Assembly (NCBI GenBank): GCA_002305765.1
Contig: DBQU01000062.1
Span: 27,859 to 91,858 of the forward strand
Source of the DNA: Deltaproteobacteria bacterium UBA1386
GTDB lineage: Bacteria > Desulfobacterota > Syntrophorhabdia > Syntrophorhabdales > Syntrophorhabdaceae
DNA: 64,000 nt
Direction: 5' to 3'
Shown here: piece after piece, positions 1 through 9,110 of the stretch
How positions within the stretch are numbered: the stretch's first letter is position 1
Layout: each line of letters begins with the position of its first letter
Made by a program: the position numbers and the translations under genes
Notes under the pieces: generated by a model
What the model was told of the DNA's origin: nothing
The model's database searches: none
What the model saw: the letters and a program-made list of their open reading frames with translations, nothing else

Positions 1-153
1 GGTGATGAAGCTCAGGTTGACCGCGTTCAGCATGAGCTCGATGCACATGAAGATCACGATCGCGTTCCTCCGTGTTATGACACCCACGGCCCCCACGGTG
101 AAAAGCACCGCCGAGAGCAGGTAATAGAGGGTCTGCGGTATCTCGGGCAACAT
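1..153 (-). CDS. nuoK: NADH-quinone oxidoreductase subunit K (first 51 codons; 3' part runs off the left edge)
   Basis: Own reverse-strand translation from ATG at 153 gives [51 protein letters not shown], the conserved NuoK/ND4L core. It follows nuoJ in canonical order. Confidence 0.85.
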
Positions 154-163
154 TTTCTCTCTC

Positions 164-697
164 CTAATCCTTTCTTTTCTTCGCGAGCAGTACGGCCCCC
201 ACTATACCCACGAGAAGAAGTATCGAGGCAATCTCGAAGGCGAAGACGTACTTGCCGTAAAGGAGTGTTCCCACCGCCCTGGTGTTGCCGATCTCGGCGA
301 GCTTCTGGGCGCTGTAGACCCCTTTCTGCCCCGCGTCGCTATAGGTGAACACCCCCGCCAGGACCTGCAGAAAAAGCAGGATGGTAACGACTCCGCCGAT
401 AAGCTTCGCAAAGGAAAGCCTTCTCTTCCACTGCGCGCCCCATTCCAGGTGGATCAGCATTATCACGAAGAGGACGAGCATCATGATCGCCCCGGCATAG
501 ACCATGATCTGGGCCACGGCGATGAATGTCGCGTTGAGGAGCACGTAGAGGATCGCGACGGAGAAGAAGGTCACGATCAACCACAGGGCGCTGTGGATGG
601 GGTTTTTCCTTGTCACCATCATGAGCGACGATCCCGTCGCCACAAGGGCCGCAACAACAAAGATAAACCATTTGAATCCGATACCGATGCCGATCAT
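164..697 (-). CDS. nuoJ: NADH-quinone oxidoreductase subunit J
   Basis: 177-aa polytopic membrane ORF with a NuoJ/ND6-like block ([22 protein letters not shown]). 4-nt overlap with the nuoI stop; canonical operon position. Confidence 0.9.
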
Positions 698-1116
698 TTT
701 CTATCCTCATACATGGCAAGGAGTCTCTTCATGTCCAGTACAAAATCCTCTTTCCGGTAATGTGCCTGCTCGTAGTCTTTGCCGAGATTGATGGCGTTAA
801 CCGGGCAGGCATCCTGGCAGAAGCCGCAGTAGATGCATCGCCACGGGTCGATCTCGTATTTTATGGGATACCGTTTGCCGTCGAATCTCTCGCCTATCTC
901 CAGAGTGATGCACTGGTTGGGACAGGCCTTGACACAGAGTCCGCAGGCGACACAGGCCGTCTCACCGGCCTCGTTCTTCTTGAAGTAGTGTATCCCTCGC
1001 CATCTTTCGGGTACTTCATGCTTCTTCTCCGGGTACTGATAGGTTATGGGCTTCGTGAAGACCCGTGTGAACGTCAACCTGAGACCTTTGAGAAGGGGCA
1101 GGATCTGTTTCATCAC
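694..1116 (-). CDS. nuoI: NADH-quinone oxidoreductase subunit I (2x[4Fe-4S] ferredoxin-type)
   Basis: Two CxxCxxCxxxCP motifs (CVACGLCVKACP, CIYCGFCQDACP). 140 aa; overlaps the nuoH stop by 4 nt. Confidence 0.95.
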   Translation of the reverse strand: MMKQILPLLKGLRLTFTRVFTKPITYQYPEKKHEVPERWRGIHYFKKNEAGETACVACGLCVKACPNQCITLEIGERFDGKRYPIKYEIDPWRCIYCGFCQDACPVNAINLGKDYEQAHYRKEDFVLDMKRLLAMYEDRK

Positions 1117-2105
1117 AGCACCCCCATTGCCACGAGGGCAGCGGTAACGACAACGTTAAGGAGGGTAAGGGGCAGGAGCACCTTCCATCCGAATTGCATG
1201 ATGTGATCGTATCTCAACCTCGGGTACGTCCCCCTCTCCCAGATAAAGAAGAAGATGACACAGAAGACCTTTATCAGGAACCAGATCGGCCCGGGCAGCC
1301 AGGGCCCCATCCATCCGCCGAGGAACAGGGTGGTAACGATGGCAGCTATGGTGAACATGTGCGCGTACTCGGCGATCATGAAGGTCGCGAACTTCATGCT
1401 GCTGTATTCGATGTTGAAACCGCATGCCAGCTCGCTCTCCGATTCGGGCATATCGAAAGGCGTCCTGTTTATCTCCGCCAGTCCTGCTACGAGGTAGAAG
1501 AGAAAGCCTGCCGGATACTTGATCACGAACCACATCCCTTCCTGAGCCGAAACGATGTCACGGAGGTTCAAGGACCCTGCGAGGATTATGGTGCCGATGA
1601 CCGCAAGGCCAAGGGCCACCTCGTAGCTGATCATCTGCGCCGCGGCACGCAATGCCCCGAGCACCCCGTACTTGTTCCCTGAGGCCCACCCGCCGAGAAC
1701 CACACCATACTCACCGAGGGTCGCGAGGGCAAGCAGGTACAGAAGGCCCGTATCCAGGTCGGCAACGACCAGCTTGATCTGTCTGCCCAGGAAGGTTACG
1801 GTGTCTCCGAAGGGAATGACCGCGAACATGGAGAGCGCCGCGAAGAGGGAGATGCCCGGTGCGAGGACGTAGAGAGTCTTGTCCGCCTCGTCAGGTATGA
1901 TGTCTTCCTTGAAGAAAGACTTGACGCCGTCCGCGATCGGCTGAAGGAGACCGAAGGGCCCCACCCTGTTGGGACCGAGCCTGACCTGCAGACGGCCGAG
2001 CAGTTTTCGCTCAAGGAGCGTGGTATAGGCCACACATCCCATGAGGACGAGCACCACAACGATGTTCTTGACCACCATTTCAATCAAAGTATAGAGCGAT
2101 TCCAT
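1113..2105 (-). CDS. nuoH: NADH-quinone oxidoreductase subunit H
   Basis: 330-aa polytopic protein with the NuoH/ND1 signature LLERKLLGRLQVRLGPNRVGPFGLLQPIADGVK. Confidence 0.95.
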   Translation of the reverse strand: MESLYTLIEMVVKNIVVVLVLMGCVAYTTLLERKLLGRLQVRLGPNRVGPFGLLQPIADGVKSFFKEDIIPDEADKTLYVLAPGISLFAALSMFAVIPFGDTVTFLGRQIKLVVADLDTGLLYLLALATLGEYGVVLGGWASGNKYGVLGALRAAAQMISYEVALGLAVIGTIILAGSLNLRDIVSAQEGMWFVIKYPAGFLFYLVAGLAEINRTPFDMPESESELACGFNIEYSSMKFATFMIAEYAHMFTIAAIVTTLFLGGWMGPWLPGPIWFLIKVFCVIFFFIWERGTYPRLRYDHIMQFGWKVLLPLTLLNVVVTAALVAMGVL

Positions 2106-2108
2106 GCC

Positions 2109-4514
2109 TTAACCTTTTTTTACCGTCACTGCGATGTGTTTGCCGTATCCGTCGGCAAGCTTCAATACGTCCTGCCTGTTCTTCAGCATCCTGTATTCAA
2201 GCACGCCCTTGCCAAGACCTTCCTTGACCGTGACGGGGTGCTGCAGTGTCCCGTGGTCCGATTCGACGATGACCTGACCGCCGTCGGCTATACCCAACGC
2301 CGCGGCGTCTTCCGGTGAAATGAACAGCTTGTCTCCGGCAACCGCGGGATTCTGGAGGTACACCATCTTCGAGTAGACACCCTGTCCCGCCAGGTGATGG
2401 TGGAAGAAGACATTCCTCAGGACAAGGGTGAGCGGTCTCGCCGGCTTGCCCTCCGCGGCTTTGCCCGCTGAGGCCAGACGTGCCTGGCCGTTCGTGGGTT
2501 TGAGCATCGCCCTGCCGCTGTCGTCCGCCACGAGGACCTCCTTCCCGAAGAGAACCCTGGATGCCTCCTGTTCGTCCCTGTACAGGCCGCCGCCCAACCG
2601 GTCGAGGAGGAGCCTCAGGTAGTCGAACCCCGGCGAGGATCCGCCTTCCGCCCGTGCCACATCGCGCACGTAACCATCTTCCGCGACGTAGCTGCCGTCC
2701 TTCTGGGCAAAGCTGCCGGAGGGGACGACGACATGCGCCAGCGCGGAGGCGCCCGTCGGGAACATGTCACAGACCGCCACAAAGGCCTTGTTCTTCAATG
2801 ATTCTTCCACCCTCTTTCCTCCGAGGTAATGGAAAGGATCGTCCTCATAGATGAAGAGGCCATCCGCCTCACCCAGAACATCCCCGGAAGAGACGGCATC
2901 GGGCAGGACCGAGATGACTCCGACGGCATTGGACTGGAGCGCCGTCGGCATCACGACCCCCGTCTTTTGAACGCCTTTCACGAGACAGAGGTTGAGGAGC
3001 GCTTCCATGCTCTCCGTCCTGTCGCTGATACCGGTGCCGAATATGACAGCCACGCGGGAGGCCGCGGCGAAAAGAGCATAGAACCTGTCCACGCTCTTCT
3101 CGTCGGCCCCGCTCCGTACTGCATCCCCTTTGCCTCCACCGGTACTACCCGAAAAACCTTCCAGACTTCCCGCCTCCGGGTCGTTCTTCTTGTCCGCGAT
3201 CAACTGCGAGGCGACGCCGTTGAAGAACAGCGCGTCGGAACCCGGAGCGACCTTCACCCACACGTCACAGGCTCTCGTCAGTGCCGCGGAGGAAGGGTCG
3301 ACAACGGCCACCTTCGTTCCCTTGTTCTTCACCACTTCCCGCACTTTGTTCGCAAGGAGATGGTTATTGCCGAGAAGGTCGGCGCCGGCAACGACCACGA
3401 GATCGCAGTCGTTGATCGCTTCATATTCGTAAGGATAGGGAATTCCCATGCGGCGCAGTGTTTCGAGCACCCTGCCCGTATGGTAGTACCCGGCGGTCCC
3501 GAACCGGGTCTTCGAGAACGTGCCCGCGATCTGCGAGATCATGTAGGCTTCCTCGTTCGTCGCCCGGGGGGACACGATAAAACCGATCGTCTTTCCTTCC
3601 TTGTCGAGCTTCGCGAGAGCTGACGCGGTCGCCTCGACGGCCTCGGCAAGGGTGGCTTCCGACGCTGCCGCGCCCTGCTTGAGGGTCGGTGTCGCAAGCC
3701 GCGCCTCGTTGTTCGCGAAGTCGTACCCGAAGCGTCCCATCACGCAGAGGGAACCCTTGTTGGGAAGACGTTCCGGACGGGTTACGACCTTCGTCACGAA
3801 CCTGTCCTCGAACACGTCGAGGTCGAGGGAACAGCCGAATCCGCAGTGCGGGCAGGTCGTCGTCTGCCGCTTCGTCTGCCACTTCCTGCTCTTCAACGGG
3901 CTTTCCTGCTCGGTAAGGGCGCCGACGGGACACACGTTGAGACATTCACCGCAGGAGATGCAGTCCTCGGGCACCTTCGGCGCCATGGCCGCTTCTATAC
4001 CGCTCCCGGTAAGTTCCAGGACCCTGCGACCGGATATCTCACGGCAGGCATGAACGCAGCGCAGACAGAGCACGCATCTGTCCTCGGAATACCTGATCAG
4101 CGCCGTGGCATAGGGTTTCACCTTTTTCGGCTCCCTTTCGGCGGCAAGATCGACGGATTCGATCTTGTGCTCGAAGACGAGGTCCTGCAGACGGCACTCC
4201 CCGCCGGAGTCACAGATGGGACAGTCGAGGGGGTGATTGATGAGAAGGAACCTCAGGTACTCCTGGCGCATGGCGAAGAGCTTCTCCGATCGTGTCGTGA
4301 CCGATATGCCCTCGACGGCGGCCGTGGTGCACGATGCCACCGGTTTGTCGTACCCCTCGATCTCAACGATGCAAAGCCTGCACGAGCCAATGGGGAGAAG
4401 GTTCTCGTGGTAGCACAACGTGGGAATGTGGATGTCGTTCTCCCGTGCCGCTTCGAGTATCGTCTTACCCTTCTCGGTCTTTATCTCTTTGCCGTCTATC
4501 TTGAGTGTTATCAT
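2109..4514 (-). CDS. nuoG: NuoG-like Fe-S / molybdopterin-oxidoreductase-fold subunit (NuoG / formate-dehydrogenase-alpha / SfrA-like)
   Basis: ORF 2109..4541. Preferred start is ATG 4514 (MITLKIDG), 13 nt after the upstream stop, with an AAGGGAA-type RBS. Motifs: 2Fe-2S fold (CYHENLLPIGSCRLC), HPLDCPICDSGGEC, two 4Fe-4S motifs (CVLCLRCVHAC, CISCGECLNVCP), CPHCGFGC, then a long MopB-like C-terminal region. Confidence 0.8.
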   Translation of the reverse strand: MITLKIDGKEIKTEKGKTILEAARENDIHIPTLCYHENLLPIGSCRLCIVEIEGYDKPVASCTTAAVEGISVTTRSEKLFAMRQEYLRFLLINHPLDCPICDSGGECRLQDLVFEHKIESVDLAAEREPKKVKPYATALIRYSEDRCVLCLRCVHACREISGRRVLELTGSGIEAAMAPKVPEDCISCGECLNVCPVGALTEQESPLKSRKWQTKRQTTTCPHCGFGCSLDLDVFEDRFVTKVVTRPERLPNKGSLCVMGRFGYDFANNEARLATPTLKQGAAASEATLAEAVEATASALAKLDKEGKTIGFIVSPRATNEEAYMISQIAGTFSKTRFGTAGYYHTGRVLETLRRMGIPYPYEYEAINDCDLVVVAGADLLGNNHLLANKVREVVKNKGTKVAVVDPSSAALTRACDVWVKVAPGSDALFFNGVASQLIADKKNDPEAGSLEGFSGSTGGGKGDAVRSGADEKSVDRFYALFAAASRVAVIFGTGISDRTESMEALLNLCLVKGVQKTGVVMPTALQSNAVGVISVLPDAVSSGDVLGEADGLFIYEDDPFHYLGGKRVEESLKNKAFVAVCDMFPTGASALAHVVVPSGSFAQKDGSYVAEDGYVRDVARAEGGSSPGFDYLRLLLDRLGGGLYRDEQEASRVLFGKEVLVADDSGRAMLKPTNGQARLASAGKAAEGKPARPLTLVLRNVFFHHHLAGQGVYSKMVYLQNPAVAGDKLFISPEDAAALGIADGGQVIVESDHGTLQHPVTVKEGLGKGVLEYRMLKNRQDVLKLADGYGKHIAVTVKKG

Positions 4515-4527
4515 TCCCGTTCCCTTT

Positions 4528-6477
4528 TCAACCAACCGCAATCATGCCTATTCTGTAACAGCGAAGGCACCGTGACGCCTCCGTGATCGCCTCATCGGTC
4601 CGGAAACCCTCTTCCACCTCGTCGAAGGTCCACTTCCTGACCTCGGGGGCCATCGGCCGCAGAAGAAGTCTTGCCCTGTCGCCCAGAAAACCAACGTTCT
4701 CGTTCTTGTCGTAGACCTTGACGTCACCGAAGAACTTCACGAACCTCTCGCTCATGCGGGCCTTCGGTTTCTCTCCCCTCAGGTATTCATCGATCTTCCA
4801 GGCAGCGCGCTTGCCGTTGCCGCAGGCGCGGACGAGGACGTCCGGGCCGGTTTCGCAGTCGCCGGCGGAGAAAACACCCGGCACGTTGGTCTCGAAGGTC
4901 TCCTGGTCGACCTGGAAGGTGTTCCATTTCGTTATGGCAAAATCTTCCTTCTTCTCAAGGAAGGAGAAGTCGACGGCCTGACCGATCGCGGGGATGAGTA
5001 TGTCCGTATCGATCACGAACTCGGAACCCGGAACGGGAACCGGCCTTCTGCGCCCACTCGCGTCCGGTTCTCCCAGTTCCATTCGGATGCACTCCACGCC
5101 GACGACCTTGCCGTCCTTCTCGAGGATCCGCGTGGGATTGCACAGGTAGTGGAACTCAACGCCCTCTTCCTCCGCCTCGTGGATCTCCACGGGGTCCGCG
5201 GGCATCTCTTTCTTCGTACGCCTGTAGACCAGGTGAACGTCCGGCTTGCCGACGCGGAAGGATGACCTGACGCAGTCCATCGCCACGTTGCCGCCGCCAA
5301 CGACTACGACCTTCTTTCCCTCGGGATAGGGGTCTTGCCCGTTGTTGATGTCGAGAAGATACTTCACGCCGGGGATGAAGCCGCGATAGCCCGAGTCCTC
5401 GCCCTGCACGCCCATGGGTGAGGAACTGTGGGCGCCGACACCGATGAAGACGGCATCGAAATCCTTCCGTATCTGGTCGATGGTTATGTCTTTGCCCAGA
5501 GCCACGCCGTACCGCATGGTTACGCCGAAGGACTCCACGAAGGCGCCCTCGCCGCCAAGAATGACCCTCGGCAAACGATAGTCGGGGATACCCACCGCCG
5601 CCATGCCGCCTGGTTCCCCGAGCTTCTCGAAGACCGTCACGGGGTAGCCCATCTGGGCGAGATAATAGGCGCAGGAAAGCCCGGCAGGGCCGGCACCGAT
5701 GACGGCGATCTTCTTGTTCTTATCTATCTTCGCCTCGACGTTGCGTTTTACGTCCTTGTCCAATTCGTAGTCCGCAACGAACCGCTTGAGGCTTTTGATG
5801 GAGATCGCCTCGTCGATGTTCGCTCGCCTGCAGTTGGACTCGCACGGCCGGACACAGACCCTTCCCAGTGTCCCGGCGAGGCAGGTGTTCTCCCGTATCG
5901 TCGCGAGGGATTCCGTGAACCGCCCTTCGCTTATGGCCTCCACGTACTTCGGGATATCGAGCTGAGTGGGGCACACGCTCATGCAGGGGGCCGTGACGGA
6001 CACCTTGTAGTCGCCCGCCTTCGCCTTGCGCCCTTCAGCTATCGACCGGTCGAACTCGGGGCCGAAGAACGAAAGGGCCTGAAGGAGAGGCACGAAACCT
6101 GTCTGGCCAATCTGGCACTTGGAGCCGTCCTTTATGCCGGCGGCGATGGTGGGGATCCTCGCAAGATCTTCCTTCTTGCCCCGACCGTCGGCGATGCCCT
6201 TCAGGATGTCCAGAATGACCTTGCTGCCTATCCTGCAGGGCACGCACCGTCCGCAGGATTCTTTCTGGACCGCCTCGACGTACCTGACGGACATGTCGAC
6301 GATATCCACACTCTCATCACAGAGGATGATGCCATCCCACCCCATGAAGGCCTTGACGGGAAGACCCTTCTCTAACTCTCCGGGGAGTTTTACCTTCGGG
6401 GCTTCGAAAGACTCGCGGGCCTTGCCCCTGTTGTCTATTATCTCACCCTGCCAGGAACTGAAGATCACGTCTGCCAT
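4528..6477 (-). CDS. Fusion protein: C-terminal 4Fe-4S (N3) part of NuoF joined to a GltD/NfnB/SfrB-like FAD- and NAD(P)H-binding oxidoreductase
   Basis: ORF 4528..6483 (TTG); first ATG at 6477. Residues about 60-125 carry the NuoF N3 motif ESCGRCVPCRIG...SKCQIGQT, but the FMN/NADH-binding domain that precedes it in NuoF is absent. The rest is GltD-like: Cys clusters CMSVCPTQ and CVRPCESNC, FAD fold KIAVIGAGPAGL, second dinucleotide fold KKVVVVGGGNVAMD. Confidence 0.8.
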   Translation of the reverse strand: MADVIFSSWQGEIIDNRGKARESFEAPKVKLPGELEKGLPVKAFMGWDGIILCDESVDIVDMSVRYVEAVQKESCGRCVPCRIGSKVILDILKGIADGRGKKEDLARIPTIAAGIKDGSKCQIGQTGFVPLLQALSFFGPEFDRSIAEGRKAKAGDYKVSVTAPCMSVCPTQLDIPKYVEAISEGRFTESLATIRENTCLAGTLGRVCVRPCESNCRRANIDEAISIKSLKRFVADYELDKDVKRNVEAKIDKNKKIAVIGAGPAGLSCAYYLAQMGYPVTVFEKLGEPGGMAAVGIPDYRLPRVILGGEGAFVESFGVTMRYGVALGKDITIDQIRKDFDAVFIGVGAHSSSPMGVQGEDSGYRGFIPGVKYLLDINNGQDPYPEGKKVVVVGGGNVAMDCVRSSFRVGKPDVHLVYRRTKKEMPADPVEIHEAEEEGVEFHYLCNPTRILEKDGKVVGVECIRMELGEPDASGRRRPVPVPGSEFVIDTDILIPAIGQAVDFSFLEKKEDFAITKWNTFQVDQETFETNVPGVFSAGDCETGPDVLVRACGNGKRAAWKIDEYLRGEKPKARMSERFVKFFGDVKVYDKNENVGFLGDRARLLLRPMAPEVRKWTFDEVEEGFRTDEAITEASRCLRCYRIGMIAVG

Positions 6478-6486
6478 AGTCAACCT

Positions 6487-7659
6487 TTACTTGTCTATTT
6501 CCCCGAGAACTATGTCGATGCTTCCTATCGCAGCGACCACGTCGGCCACCAGCGATCCCTCTATCATCTTCGACACGGAGCCGAGGTTGAGGAATGAGGG
6601 CGGACGGATCCTTACCCTGTAGGGTTTCTCCGAACCGTCGCTGACGATATAGAACCCGAGCTCACCCTTTGAAGACTCGATCGACGCATACGCCTCACCC
6701 TTCGGCGGCTTGATGCCGTCGGCCATGATCTTGAAATGGCGGATGAGGGCGGCCATGTCCTTTGACACCTCTTCCTTTTCCGGTGGCACGTATTCCGGCG
6801 CATCCGCCTTGATGGGCCCCTCGGGGAGCTTCTGGATGGCCTGATCGACGATCCTTACGGACTGTCTCATCTCCTTGAGACGGACGAGGTACCGGTCGTA
6901 GACATCACCTGCCGTGCCGAGAGGTATCTCGAAGTCGAAATCCTCATAGCTCGAATAGGGATAGGCTTTACGGACGTCGTAATTAACCCCCGAGGCGCGA
7001 AGCACGGGGCCCGTCACGCCGTAGCCTATGGCATCCTCGGCGCTCAAGGGACAGACACCTTTCAGGCGCCTCTTCCATATGACATTCTCCGTAAGCAGTG
7101 TCTCGTATTCATCGATCCTGCGGGGGAGATCGTCGATGAAGGCCTTCGCTTCCTTCAGAAAACCCTCGGGCAGCTCTTCCCGGAGCCCGCCGAAGCGTAT
7201 ATAGTCCGGCATGAGCCTTGCGCCCGCAACTGTCTCCAACACCTTCAGGCAGGATTCCCTTTCCCGGAACCCGTAGAAAAGCACCGTCATGGCGCCCATA
7301 TCGAGGGCGTGCGTCGATATCCAGAGAAGGTGGGCGGCGATGCGCTGCAATTCACTCAGCATCACACGGATGTACTGGGCCCTTTTCGGTATCTCTATGC
7401 CGAGCAGTTTCTCCACGGCAAGGCAGTAGGCCAGGTTGTTGGACATGCCGCTCGTGTAATCGAGCCGGTCCGTGAGGGGCTGGCCCTGCCAGTAGGTCCT
7501 GTTCTCGAAGATCTTCTCAATGCCGCGATGGAGATACCCGATGTCAGGGATGCTTGACACGACGGTCTCGCCGTCAAGCTCGAGCACCACCCTCAGCACC
7601 CCGTGTGTGGCGGGATGCTGCGGCCCCATGTTGATCGTCATGTACTTGGTCTCAGCCAT
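6487..7659 (-). CDS. nuoD: NADH-quinone oxidoreductase subunit D (49-kDa)
   Basis: 390 aa. N-terminus MTINMGPQHPATHGVLRVVLELDGE and C-terminus SIDIVLGEIDK are typical NuoD. Directly abuts nuoC. Confidence 0.95.
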   Translation of the reverse strand: MAETKYMTINMGPQHPATHGVLRVVLELDGETVVSSIPDIGYLHRGIEKIFENRTYWQGQPLTDRLDYTSGMSNNLAYCLAVEKLLGIEIPKRAQYIRVMLSELQRIAAHLLWISTHALDMGAMTVLFYGFRERESCLKVLETVAGARLMPDYIRFGGLREELPEGFLKEAKAFIDDLPRRIDEYETLLTENVIWKRRLKGVCPLSAEDAIGYGVTGPVLRASGVNYDVRKAYPYSSYEDFDFEIPLGTAGDVYDRYLVRLKEMRQSVRIVDQAIQKLPEGPIKADAPEYVPPEKEEVSKDMAALIRHFKIMADGIKPPKGEAYASIESSKGELGFYIVSDGSEKPYRVRIRPPSFLNLGSVSKMIEGSLVADVVAAIGSIDIVLGEIDK

Positions 7660-8151
7660 TTATGCCTTCTCCAGGTCCACCACGAAGGGTTTGTCGAAAT
7701 CCTTGCCTTCGAGGGGAAACTCCTTGCGCAGGGGATGGCCCTCAAAATCATCGGGGTTGTATATCCTGCGCAGATCGGGATGATTCGCGAAAGGCAGACC
7801 GAACATGTCGTAGATCTCCCTTTCGAGGAAATTGGCAGCCGGCCACAGGTGGCTCGCCGTTTCGATGCCCTCGTCGCCCGTTCTCGTCTTCACCACTATC
7901 CTCGCGTTGTTCTTCGTGGAGCGGAGGATGTAGACGATCTCGAAGCGCGGCTCTTCGCCTGTGTAGTCGACTGCAAAGAGCTCGACAAGCATGTCGAACA
8001 AGAGGTCCCGGTCATACCTGAGATGGTCGAGGGCCTCGTGGATGCTTTCCCTGTCGACCATCGCGCTCGGTTCGCCGGGGGGCGTCGGCACGATCTTTAC
8101 GCCTGCCACCTTATCGGAGAGTATTTTCAGAAACTCGCTGTTATCGCTCAT
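7660..8151 (-). CDS. nuoC: NADH-quinone oxidoreductase subunit C (30-kDa)
   Basis: ORF 7660..8262. Preferred start is the internal ATG 8151 ([11 protein letters not shown]), giving an ATGA overlap with the nuoB stop. Contains the NuoC block [25 protein letters not shown]. Confidence 0.9.
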
Positions 8152-8642
8152 GCACTCTTCCCGGGCAATGTTATCAGAGGTCTGTCCTTGATGGACTCTT
8201 TCTGGATCTTCTTCTGAAGCTCTATGATGCCCTTCAGGAGGGCTTCCGGCCGGGGAGGACATCCGGGGATGTACACGTCCACGGGGATTATCTGGTCAAC
8301 ACCCTGCACGACGCTGTAGGATTTGAAGATTCCGCCCGATGATGCGCAGGCGCCGTACGCGATGACCCACTTGGGATTCGGCATCTGTTCGTATATCCTC
8401 CGAACCACGGGGGCCATTTTTTTCGTCAGTGTTCCGGCGACTATCATGAGGTCCGACTGCCTCGGCGAGGGACGGAACACCTCGGCGCCGAAACGGGCGA
8501 TATCGTACTCCGCGGAGCTTGCCACCATCATCTCGAGGGCGCAGCAGGCAAGGCCGAATGTGACAGGGAAGAGAGAGTTCTTCCTGGACCAGTTGATGGC
8601 CCAGTCAAGTGTCGTTACAAGTACGTTCTTTTCTATTCCCAT
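8148..8642 (-). CDS. nuoB: NADH-quinone oxidoreductase subunit B (N2 cluster)
   Basis: N2-cluster cysteine blocks [19 protein letters not shown] and IPGCPPRPE; 164 aa. Confidence 0.95.
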
Positions 8643-8986
8643 TCCAATGCACCTTTTTTCCAGATGTAGATATACCCAATGAAGAGTATGAAAACAAAGA
8701 CCAGCATCTCGATGAATCCGAAGAGCCCGAGGCGACGGGAGATAACTGCCCAGGGATAGAGGAATATGATTTCAATGTCGAAGACGAGGAAGAGCATGGC
8801 CACAATATAGTACCGGATGGTCATGATCCGGCGCGTCGGGCCGCTCGTCGTCATGCCGCATTCATAGGGAGCAAGTTTGGTCTTGCTTTTCGTCCTGTGT
8901 CCGAGAACATGTGAAGCACCGATTATCACGGCCGCGATGATCCCGGCAAGGCACATCATGACAAAGATCGCTACGTACTCGAGCAT
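8633..8986 (-). CDS. nuoA: NADH-quinone oxidoreductase subunit A
   Basis: 117 aa with 3 TM segments. NuoA/ND3-like block YECGM...[22 protein letters not shown]. First gene of the operon. Confidence 0.9.
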
Positions 8987-9067
8987 GTCTCAGGTCCTCT
9001 TTGAAGTATGTTGCAAAAAAAAAACTTAAAGGTAGATTATGAAACTGCACTCCCACTTTGTTCCCAA

Positions 9068-9100
9068 TTTCACAATGGCAAACTTTACCCAATTGTGAAA
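9068..9100. promoter_or_regulatory. Perfect 9-bp inverted repeat TTTCACAAT-N15-ATTGTGAAA overlapping the nuo promoter
   Basis: Read directly: 9068..9076 is the reverse complement of 9092..9100. One arm lies in the -35/-10 spacer; the other lies just downstream of the -10. Confidence 0.5.
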
Positions 9101-9110
9101 GATTTGTCAA
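9082..9110 (-). promoter_or_regulatory. Candidate sigma70-type promoter of the nuo operon
   Basis: Reverse strand reads TTGACA (9110..9105), a 17-nt spacer, then TAAAGT (9087..9082), about 95 nt upstream of the nuoA ATG. This is the only AT-rich gap upstream of nuoA. Confidence 0.4.

Follow-up and report, generated by a model that had tools for sequence, protein, structure and literature searches.

Complex I variants that lack NuoE and NuoF are common in anaerobes, and their electron donors are mostly unknown. One replacement has been described in Campylobacterota, where McNichol and Sievert called Suden_1824 of Sulfurimonas denitrificans 'the protein replacing NuoF', and reported its homology to NfnB and the retention of the residues that contact the NADPH phosphate (10.1101/717884, 2019 preprint); a reverse role driven by the proton-motive force (pmf) has been proposed for its operon. 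Here we analyse a complex I (nuo) operon of this kind in a 64,000-nucleotide (nt) stretch of the genome of Deltaproteobacteria bacterium UBA1386, a member of the Syntrophorhabdaceae in the Desulfobacterota (assembly GCA_002305765.1, contig DBQU01000062.1, positions 27,859 to 91,858; hereafter, the window). In the slot of nuoE, nuoF and nuoG, this operon encodes a 649-amino-acid (aa) fusion of the NuoF C-terminal cluster domain to a GltD/NfnB-type module, followed by an 801-aa NuoG-like subunit. Full-text literature searches returned the Sulfurimonas preprint as the only description of an NfnB-like NuoF replacement, and found neither a biochemical characterisation of such a complex nor a description of the operon type in Desulfobacterota or syntrophs, or of the series from selenocysteine-bearing to catalytically dead partner subunits reported below. 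In Degli Esposti (2015), gltD comes up solely in connection with mbx-like operons, and Moparthi and Hagerhall (2011; PMC3144371) counted the Campylobacterota enzymes as 12-subunit complexes with NuoG, leaving the flavoprotein unmentioned. An earlier note on this DNA, made from the sequence alone, had known of no biochemical description; this stands, but the operon type does have an in silico precedent in the Sulfurimonas-type nuo operons. The kind is already known from genome analysis and biochemically uncharacterised, and the Desulfobacterota version is a new lineage-level member of it.

Through a pattern scan of GTDB species genomes, we found at least three Campylobacterota loci (Nitratifractor, Campylobacterales and Sulfurimonadaceae; L071, L075 and L077) with the order nuoA-B-C-D, a 77-aa gene, a fusion homologue, two NuoG paralogues and nuoH. 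The fusion homologues in these loci are full length and 34–36% identical to that of the window over residues 1-650. As in the window, these operons, of the kind discussed by McNichol and Sievert, place a protein of NuoF-C-terminus plus GltD/NfnB architecture, with its YRR motif kept, between nuoD and NuoG-like/nuoH genes. Unlike the window, the Campylobacterota operons have the extra 77-aa gene between nuoD and the fusion as well as the two NuoG paralogues; in the window there is a single NuoG-like gene, the small gene is absent and the N3 cluster motif is complete. In the homologue from the Nitratifractor metagenome-assembled genome (MAG; L071:3207-5449), glycine stands in for the third N3-cluster cysteine (ACGRCTPGRWG), and that protein may lack the N3-type cluster or ligate it in another way; the 77-aa open reading frame (ORF) of the same locus overlaps the start of the fusion homologue by 4 nt. 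The hosts also differ, that of the window being a strict anaerobe from a different phylum than the sulfur-oxidising Campylobacterota.

Three further systems share parts of this architecture. In SfrAB of Geobacter sulfurreducens and FdhAB of the Moorella type, a GltD-like NADPH flavoprotein and a NuoG/FdhA-like subunit are likewise encoded by adjacent genes (SfrB being GltD-like and SfrA NuoG-like; PMC7483475). The likeness to SfrB and Moorella FdhB is taken from descriptions and homologue names, and 'formate dehydrogenase (NADP+) beta subunit' is the JGI name of many close fusion homologues. The resemblance to SfrAB drawn in the earlier note is borne out by stand-alone SfrAB/FdhAB-like pairs of the same two families in related genomes of the phylum, some with selenocysteine (Sec) in the alpha subunit. 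SfrAB and FdhAB are soluble and lie outside nuo operons, whereas the window pair lies between nuoD and nuoH and its alpha-like subunit lacks the catalytic Cys/Sec. NfnABC and StnABC of the Bfu family (PDB 9n5u, 9bov and 8oh5) provide the best matches to fusion residues ~155-643 (sequence E values of 1e-103 to 1e-114; Foldseek E values of 1e-40 to 1e-42), and have the same circularly permuted GltD module, C-terminal CxxC and NADPH site. In NfnA and StnC, however, this module has a NuoG-like domain as its fusion partner, and complete NuoF- and NuoE-like subunits (FMN, NAD+) act alongside it; in the window it is joined only to the NuoF C-terminal cluster domain, with no FMN subunit or NuoE. Compared with the canonical NuoE-NuoF-NuoG electron-input module (N-module), the window shares the operon slot, the N3-type domain and the N1b/N4/N5/N7 motifs, but has no NuoE (N1a) and no FMN/NADH domain, and instead carries a GltD-type fold predicted to hold FAD, together with an NADPH motif and a pair of additional [4Fe-4S] clusters.

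We propose that the fusion and the NuoG-like subunit form the NADP(H)-linked N-module of the organism's only complex I, a proton-pumping enzyme that possibly runs in reverse, and that this module is derived from an FdhAB/SfrAB-type pair. We assign this reading a probability of roughly 55%. The earlier note had suggested a complex I variant fed by NADPH (or coupled to ferredoxin); the NADPH-fed form is supported as the best current hypothesis, in which physical assembly, NADPH specificity, quinone coupling with NADPH:quinone activity, and direction would follow from motifs, homology and operon position.

The fusion gene (4528..6477, minus strand, ATG at 6477) combines a NuoF C-terminal N3-type domain with a 2x[4Fe-4S]-FAD-NADPH module of the GltD/NfnB/SfrB type. 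Residue numbers given here follow the 651-residue ORF, of which the ATG-started protein comprises 649 aa. Pfam assigned NADH_4Fe-4S to residues 64-146 (E 4e-21), Fer4_20 to 164-243 (E 7e-23) and Pyr_redox_2 to 258-555 (E 1e-28), and returned no match in the fusion to the FMN/NADH domain (Complex1_51K) or to SLBB. The NuoF equivalog model TIGR01959 aligned only over its positions 306-410, with 62.5 bits against a cut-off of 558.65, and a comparison with PDB sequences matched fusion residues ~43-158 to the C-terminal cluster domain (~105 residues) of NuoF, HydB and HoxF chains. The fusion therefore keeps only the N3 segment of NuoF and lacks the FMN/NADH domain, as had been claimed from the sequence. 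The N3-type [4Fe-4S] domain (6046..6294; PF10589) has its cysteines at positions 77, 80, 83 and 123, which are kept in 49-50 of 50 homologues.

The remainder of the fusion is a GltD-type module, again in agreement with the previous description; the motifs quoted there, ESCGRCVPCRIG, GAGPAGL and VVVVGGGNVAMD, could all be located in the fusion. Its dicluster domain, of the type found in GltD and dihydropyrimidine dehydrogenase (DPD) (5755..5994; PF14691), contains Cys167, Cys171, Cys210, Cys214 and Cys218, present in every one of the 50 homologues. The FAD and NADPH dinucleotide folds (4819..5712; PF07992) carry GAGPAG (GxGxxG) at 263-268 and GGGNVA at 396-401, invariant or nearly so across the same set. 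Y420-R421-R422 is found in 50/50 homologues, and phmmer aligned it with T. maritima NfnB residues Y310-R311-R312, for which binding of the NADPH 2'-phosphate has been reported (10.1101/717884). In the same comparison, fusion residues 608-642 aligned to the NfnB N-terminus (8-42). This indicates a circular permutation of the GltD module like that of NfnA/StnC, in which the C-terminal CxxC (Cys639 and Cys642; 4558..4569; 50/50 homologues), matching the N-terminal CxxC of GltD/NfnB, completes one cluster. Residues ~155-643 matched the GltD-like part of NfnA (NfnABC) and StnC among PDB sequences, and also NfnB, GltD and DPD. An AlphaFold2 monomer model confirmed the folds (mean predicted local distance difference test score, pLDDT, 76.5; mostly >85 in the N-terminal 160 residues), its top Foldseek hits being NfnA (NfnABC) and StnC. 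The GltD-family models TIGR01316 (360.5 bits) and TIGR01318 (312.6 bits) both scored under their equivalog cut-offs. Altogether, the predicted cofactors of the fusion are one N3-type [4Fe-4S] cluster, two GltD-type [4Fe-4S] clusters, FAD and an NADPH-type site.

The partner gene (2109..4514, minus strand, ATG at 4514) encodes a protein with Pfam matches to Fer2_4, NADH-G_4Fe-4S_3, Fer4 (Fer4_Nqo3), Molybdop_Fe4S4, Molybdopterin and Molydop_binding. It keeps the full NuoG cluster set, namely the [2Fe-2S] N1b, His-ligated N5, N4 and Molybdop_Fe4S4 N7-type motifs, together with a degenerate molybdopterin domain. NuoG (TIGR01973) is its best curated family and the NAD-dependent formate dehydrogenase FdsA of Rhodobacter capsulatus its best PDB match, in keeping with the NuoG/formate-dehydrogenase-like identity first given to it. 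Aligned with FdsA, Tyr353-His354 stands opposite the molybdenum-ligating Cys386-His387 (AGYYHTGR vs ARVCHSPTG), the Tyr353 codon lying at 3483..3485 at the molybdenum-ligating Cys/Sec position of formate dehydrogenases. Because Tyr353 replaces this ligand, the protein is a formate-dehydrogenase-like subunit without its catalytic ligand, as NuoG is, and the molybdopterin cofactor is probably absent from it as well. With Tyr at the ligand position, a formate-oxidising complex I is ruled out for this window; it remains a valid reading for relatives with TGA at that position. The earlier note had not recognised the NuoG-like subunit as a degenerate formate dehydrogenase, nor mentioned that relatives in the same slot still have selenocysteine; this decayed partner lends the window operon added interest.

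Gene order, coordinates and protein lengths all match those first reported. The operon occupies window positions 1-9110 on the minus strand in the order nuoA-B-C-D, fusion, NuoG-like, nuoH-I-J-K, and nuoL (661 aa), nuoM (542 aa) and nuoN (486 aa) follow nuoK on the same contig beyond the window. The genes are tightly packed: the nuoD stop lies 9 nt from the fusion ATG, the fusion stop 13 nt from the NuoG-like ATG, and the NuoG-like stop 3 nt from nuoH, and no terminator-like sites lie on the coding strand from nuoB to nuoI. The absence of nuoE from the operon, likewise claimed before, is confirmed by the 9 nt spacer and by zero 2Fe-2S_thioredx matches on this contig. The subunits around the exchanged pair (A-D and H-N) are canonical, including the quinone-reducing Q-module, in which NuoD scores above its equivalog cut-off, NuoB has the N2 ligands and NuoI its cluster motifs. 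The assembly is 97.6% complete, and tblastn of the genome with nuoA/B/C/D/H/J found one copy of each and no second nuo operon.

In the mechanism we envisage, NADPH would pass a hydride to the FAD of the GltD/NfnB-type module, from where electrons would travel over two [4Fe-4S] clusters to the NuoF-type N3 cluster, all within the fusion. From N3 they would cross the NuoG-like subunit over N1b ([2Fe-2S]) and N4/N5, and then reach NuoI (N6a/b), NuoB (N2) and the quinone site, with proton pumping by NuoH/L/M/N. The retained N3 domain corresponds to the adaptor that joins the flavin subunit to NuoG in canonical complex I, and its role in handing over electrons between the two would explain why only this fragment of NuoF survived the replacement. 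The module may have descended from a pair like SfrAB or the NADP-type formate dehydrogenase (FdhB-like plus FdhA-like), and the FdhA-like subunit, having lost its molybdenum-ligating Cys/Sec (now Tyr), would serve only as an electron wire, like NuoG. The standard potentials of NADP+/NADPH (about -320 mV) and menaquinone (about -74 mV) would allow the reaction to proceed in either direction depending on the pmf; in the syntrophic Syntrophorhabdaceae it may run in reverse, with pmf-driven reduction of NADP+ by quinol. If the proteins assemble, the complex would be a proton-pumping NADPH:quinone oxidoreductase or, reversed, a pmf-driven NADP+ reductase, and the operon type is a concrete candidate for how many Desulfobacterota and Campylobacterota feed complex I, through a GltD-type NADPH flavoprotein linked via the retained NuoF N3 domain.

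The closest relatives of the fusion protein, with 64-97% identity, occur in Syntrophorhabdaceae, Syntrophorhabdales, Syntrophales and 'Syntrophus' MAGs. Their labels vary between FAD-dependent oxidoreductase, formate dehydrogenase (NADP+) beta subunit, glutamate synthase small chain and dihydropyrimidine dehydrogenase subunit A, and current names such as the last three hide the respiratory context. Among the sampled Desulfobacterota genomes, 212 of 301 had a fusion match at E <= 1e-100, and roughly 80 a full-length ~650-aa orthologue. The survey of phylogenetic distribution suggested in the earlier note found nuoD directly upstream and/or nuoH downstream of the fusion in 36 of the 50 Desulfobacterota loci whose flanks were examined, down to 46% identity, in addition to the three or more Campylobacterota loci described above. 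In the other 14, the fusion-type gene stands alone or forms a pair resembling SfrAB/FdhAB. Since the arrangement recurs in dozens of genomes, the layout is neither an assembly artefact nor chance. In a maximum-likelihood tree the nuo-linked copies were strongly clustered, with 5 changes of context, of which well-supported branches force at least 4, compared to 12.3 for shuffled labels.

The NuoG-like subunits that occupy the nuo slot fall into three states at the catalytic position. In seven loci (L019, L049, L052, L055, L056, L058 and L064) the gene has an in-frame TGA within the motif HCARL-U-HSxTVAG, in two (L025 and L054) it has Cys, and in others, including this window, L016, L017, L020, L021, L039 and L045, the position is degenerate. 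The window fusion falls in a well-supported 7-member clade whose partners are both Sec/Cys-bearing and dead; this mixture argues for repeated loss of the catalytic site in copies already embedded in nuo operons. Sec, Cys and dead FdhA/NuoG-like versions in one slot bear on the origin of NuoG from formate dehydrogenases and also on reverse electron transport in syntrophy.

A broader reading of this series, which we offer tentatively and regard as rather unlikely, is that the operon family is a living record of how an N-module was acquired. A Sec-containing, NADP-type FdhAB would have been inserted between nuoD and nuoH, would still work in some lineages as a formate/NADPH-linked, proton-coupled complex I, and would elsewhere, including here, have repeatedly decayed in its FdhA to a NuoG-like wire. 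In syntrophs the complex would be reversed, the pmf pushing quinol electrons from acyl-CoA oxidation to NADP+ and, in Sec-bearing relatives, to CO2/formate. If this were true, the operon would encode the long-sought reverse-electron-transport device of syntrophic degradation of fatty acids and aromatics.

Several observations weigh against an NADP(H)-linked N-module in the window. The case for docking on NuoB/C/D/I consists of operon position, gene packing and conservation, and NADPH specificity of the fusion is suggested by a motif. The 801-aa protein scores 348.3 bits on the NuoG model TIGR01973, under the cut-off of 470. In one genus (G090) the NuoG-like gene lies upstream of nuoA (L066, G090:C34, 3366-5915) and the fusion directly between nuoD and nuoH, and the operon of a 1.8-Mb genome from the same taxonomic order as the window (G085; L067, G085:C23) has no NuoG-like gene, with a Sec-FdhA located 120 kb away. 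Such displacement or absence weakens a strict argument for wiring from the F to the G to the I subunit. Stand-alone pairs of both families in the phylum (L047, L051, L053, L057 and others) indicate that the pair can work as a soluble enzyme. In addition, no clear route of menaquinone biosynthesis emerges from the genome, although a quinone-type complex I is encoded: MqnA/MqnD family matches are lacking, MenD scores under its curated cut-off, and a MenA-like prenyltransferase (C109:15464-16204) is borderline, scoring exactly at its cut-off.

The alternative that survives best, which we consider possible though unlikely, is that the pair is a soluble SfrAB/FdhAB-like oxidoreductase between NADPH and an acceptor such as ferredoxin, merely co-transcribed with an 11-subunit complex I fed by ferredoxin or another donor. 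This would account for the stand-alone pairs without nuo neighbours that are common in the phylum (L060-L063 as well as those listed above) and for the relatives in which the NuoG-like gene is displaced or absent, and 11-subunit complex I without an N-module is widespread (PMC3144371; PMC11238625). Against it stand the position of the pair, precisely in the slot of E/F/G and with spacers of 3-13 nt, and the conservation of that slot in 36/50 Desulfobacterota loci and in Campylobacterota. Moreover, with the catalytic ligand of its NuoG-like subunit lost, a soluble pair would have a donor site and no obvious acceptor site, and the survival of NuoF only as its N3 adaptor domain is in keeping with a wire that leads to clusters of the NuoG type.

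We consider it quite improbable that the head bifurcates or confurcates electrons, coupling quinol/quinone to NADP(H) and ferredoxin together with the NfnB-like FAD as the bifurcation site. The idea has been published for the homologous Suden_1824 operon (10.1101/717884), the NfnB-type FAD is the bifurcating flavin in NfnAB/NfnSL, PDB entries 4ylf and 5jca are among the closest folds, and the genome is rich in ferredoxin-linked bifurcating enzymes. In NfnABC/StnABC, however, oxidation of NADPH is the sole task of the GltD-like domain, and the bifurcating step is attributed to the FMN-bearing NuoF-like subunit (PMC11829005 and PMC12018979), for which the window operon has no counterpart. Nor does the operon encode a partner of the NfnA/PyrK type or another way for electrons to leave the FAD, and no ferredoxin-binding element was identified.

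An input module for the membrane arm could also be encoded elsewhere in the genome, which contains five to six NuoF-like and several NuoE-like genes. All Complex1_51K and NuoE matches fall on three contigs, in three [FeFe]-hydrogenase clusters (C60), a cluster with NuoF::GltD and GltB-like genes (C15) and a NuoEFG-like trio followed by nfnAB (C66). The five NuoE/F-like pairs among them lie under the NuoE/F/G equivalog cut-offs where these were applied, and canonical nuoEF outside the operon is rejected as a candidate; together with the incomplete NuoF domain of the fusion, this leaves neither of the two findings that the earlier note had named as refuting its proposal. It is very improbable that the C66 trio supplies NADH oxidation to the membrane arm while the in-operon pair does something else, for although its NuoF has a complete FMN/NADH domain and split nuoEFG arrangements are reported in other Deltaproteobacteria (PMC4453560), that NuoF is of the HydB/Bfu type with extra N- and C-terminal domains, all three proteins are under the NuoE/NuoF/NuoG equivalog cut-offs (the C66 NuoG-like protein scoring 250.6 bits on the NuoG model vs 348.3 for the in-operon subunit), nfnA-nfnB directly after the trio points to a soluble Nfn/Stn-type enzyme, and the NuoG position on the arm would already be taken by the in-operon subunit.

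The C66 cluster (C66:5064-11852) consists of NuoE (149 aa), a HydB-type NuoF (626 aa) and a NuoG-like protein (732 aa) with no Cys/Sec at the formate dehydrogenase site, then directly nfnA (PyrK-like) and nfnB (GltD-like), and resembles NfnAB joined to a relative of NfnABC/StnABC in unfused form. On C60, three NuoF-like genes, one of them a NuoF::GltD fusion, adjoin [FeFe]-hydrogenase catalytic subunits; three HydABC-type [FeFe]-hydrogenase clusters lie within 23 kb (C60:40281-63502), along with a gene for a HydS-like sensory hydrogenase. The C60 HydB::GltD NADPH-module fusion is an 814-aa ORF with a possible 5' frameshift, its Complex1_51K match being split over two frames. The C15 cluster (C15:1262-7792) encodes a NuoE-like protein (333 aa), a NuoF::GltD fusion (1088 aa), a HoxU-like protein (246 aa) and a GltB-like FMN protein (526 aa). 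Assignments in C60 and C15 come partly from motifs in translated sequences rather than from hidden Markov model (HMM) matches. The genome is rich in NuoF-GltD fusions of differing lengths. A formate dehydrogenase alpha subunit with a NuoG-like N-terminus (C75:4741-7443) has an in-frame TGA in HCART-U-HAPTVAG, and the organism therefore probably uses selenocysteine, though it has been lost from the nuo-embedded NuoG-like subunit.

The other genes of the operon, all on the minus strand, were assigned as follows. Upstream of nuoA lies a sigma-70-like promoter (9082..9110; TTGACA-17-TAAAGT), identified by consensus match only (10/12 positions); this site, reading 9110-9082, is the sole strong minus-strand candidate upstream of the operon. 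Next come nuoA (8633..8986; Pfam Oxidored_q4, E 2.8e-37) and nuoB (8148..8642; Pfam Oxidored_q6; 253.7 bits on the NCBIfam NuoB subfamily vs a cut-off of 116), whose product is the N2 cluster subunit and has the tandem-Cys N2 ligands Cys33/34/99/128. The quinone-site subunit NuoD (6487..7659; 581.6 bits on TIGR01962 vs a cut-off of 459) has the GPQHPATHG loop (His loop) and the RLDY motif (Tyr). Downstream of the exchanged pair are nuoH (1113..2105; Pfam NADHdh, E 5e-124), nuoI for the N6a/N6b subunit (694..1116; Fer4 dicluster families, two CxxCxxCxxxCP motifs), nuoJ (164..697; Pfam Oxidored_q3, E 2.7e-41) and the 5' part of nuoK (1..153), which runs off the window; homologues of nuoK and of the nuoL, nuoM and nuoN genes beyond it keep this order in related loci. 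Terminator-like sites on the coding strand, at 8832-8812 (inside nuoA) and at 237-223 and 120-108 (within or near nuoJ/nuoK), all lie within or at coding sequence. Lastly, the longest ORF of nuoC (7660..8262; Pfam Complex1_30kDa, E 1e-41, residues 68-187) overlaps the nuoB 3' end by 115 nt and its Pfam match begins at residue 68; the true nuoC start is probably further downstream than that of the longest ORF.

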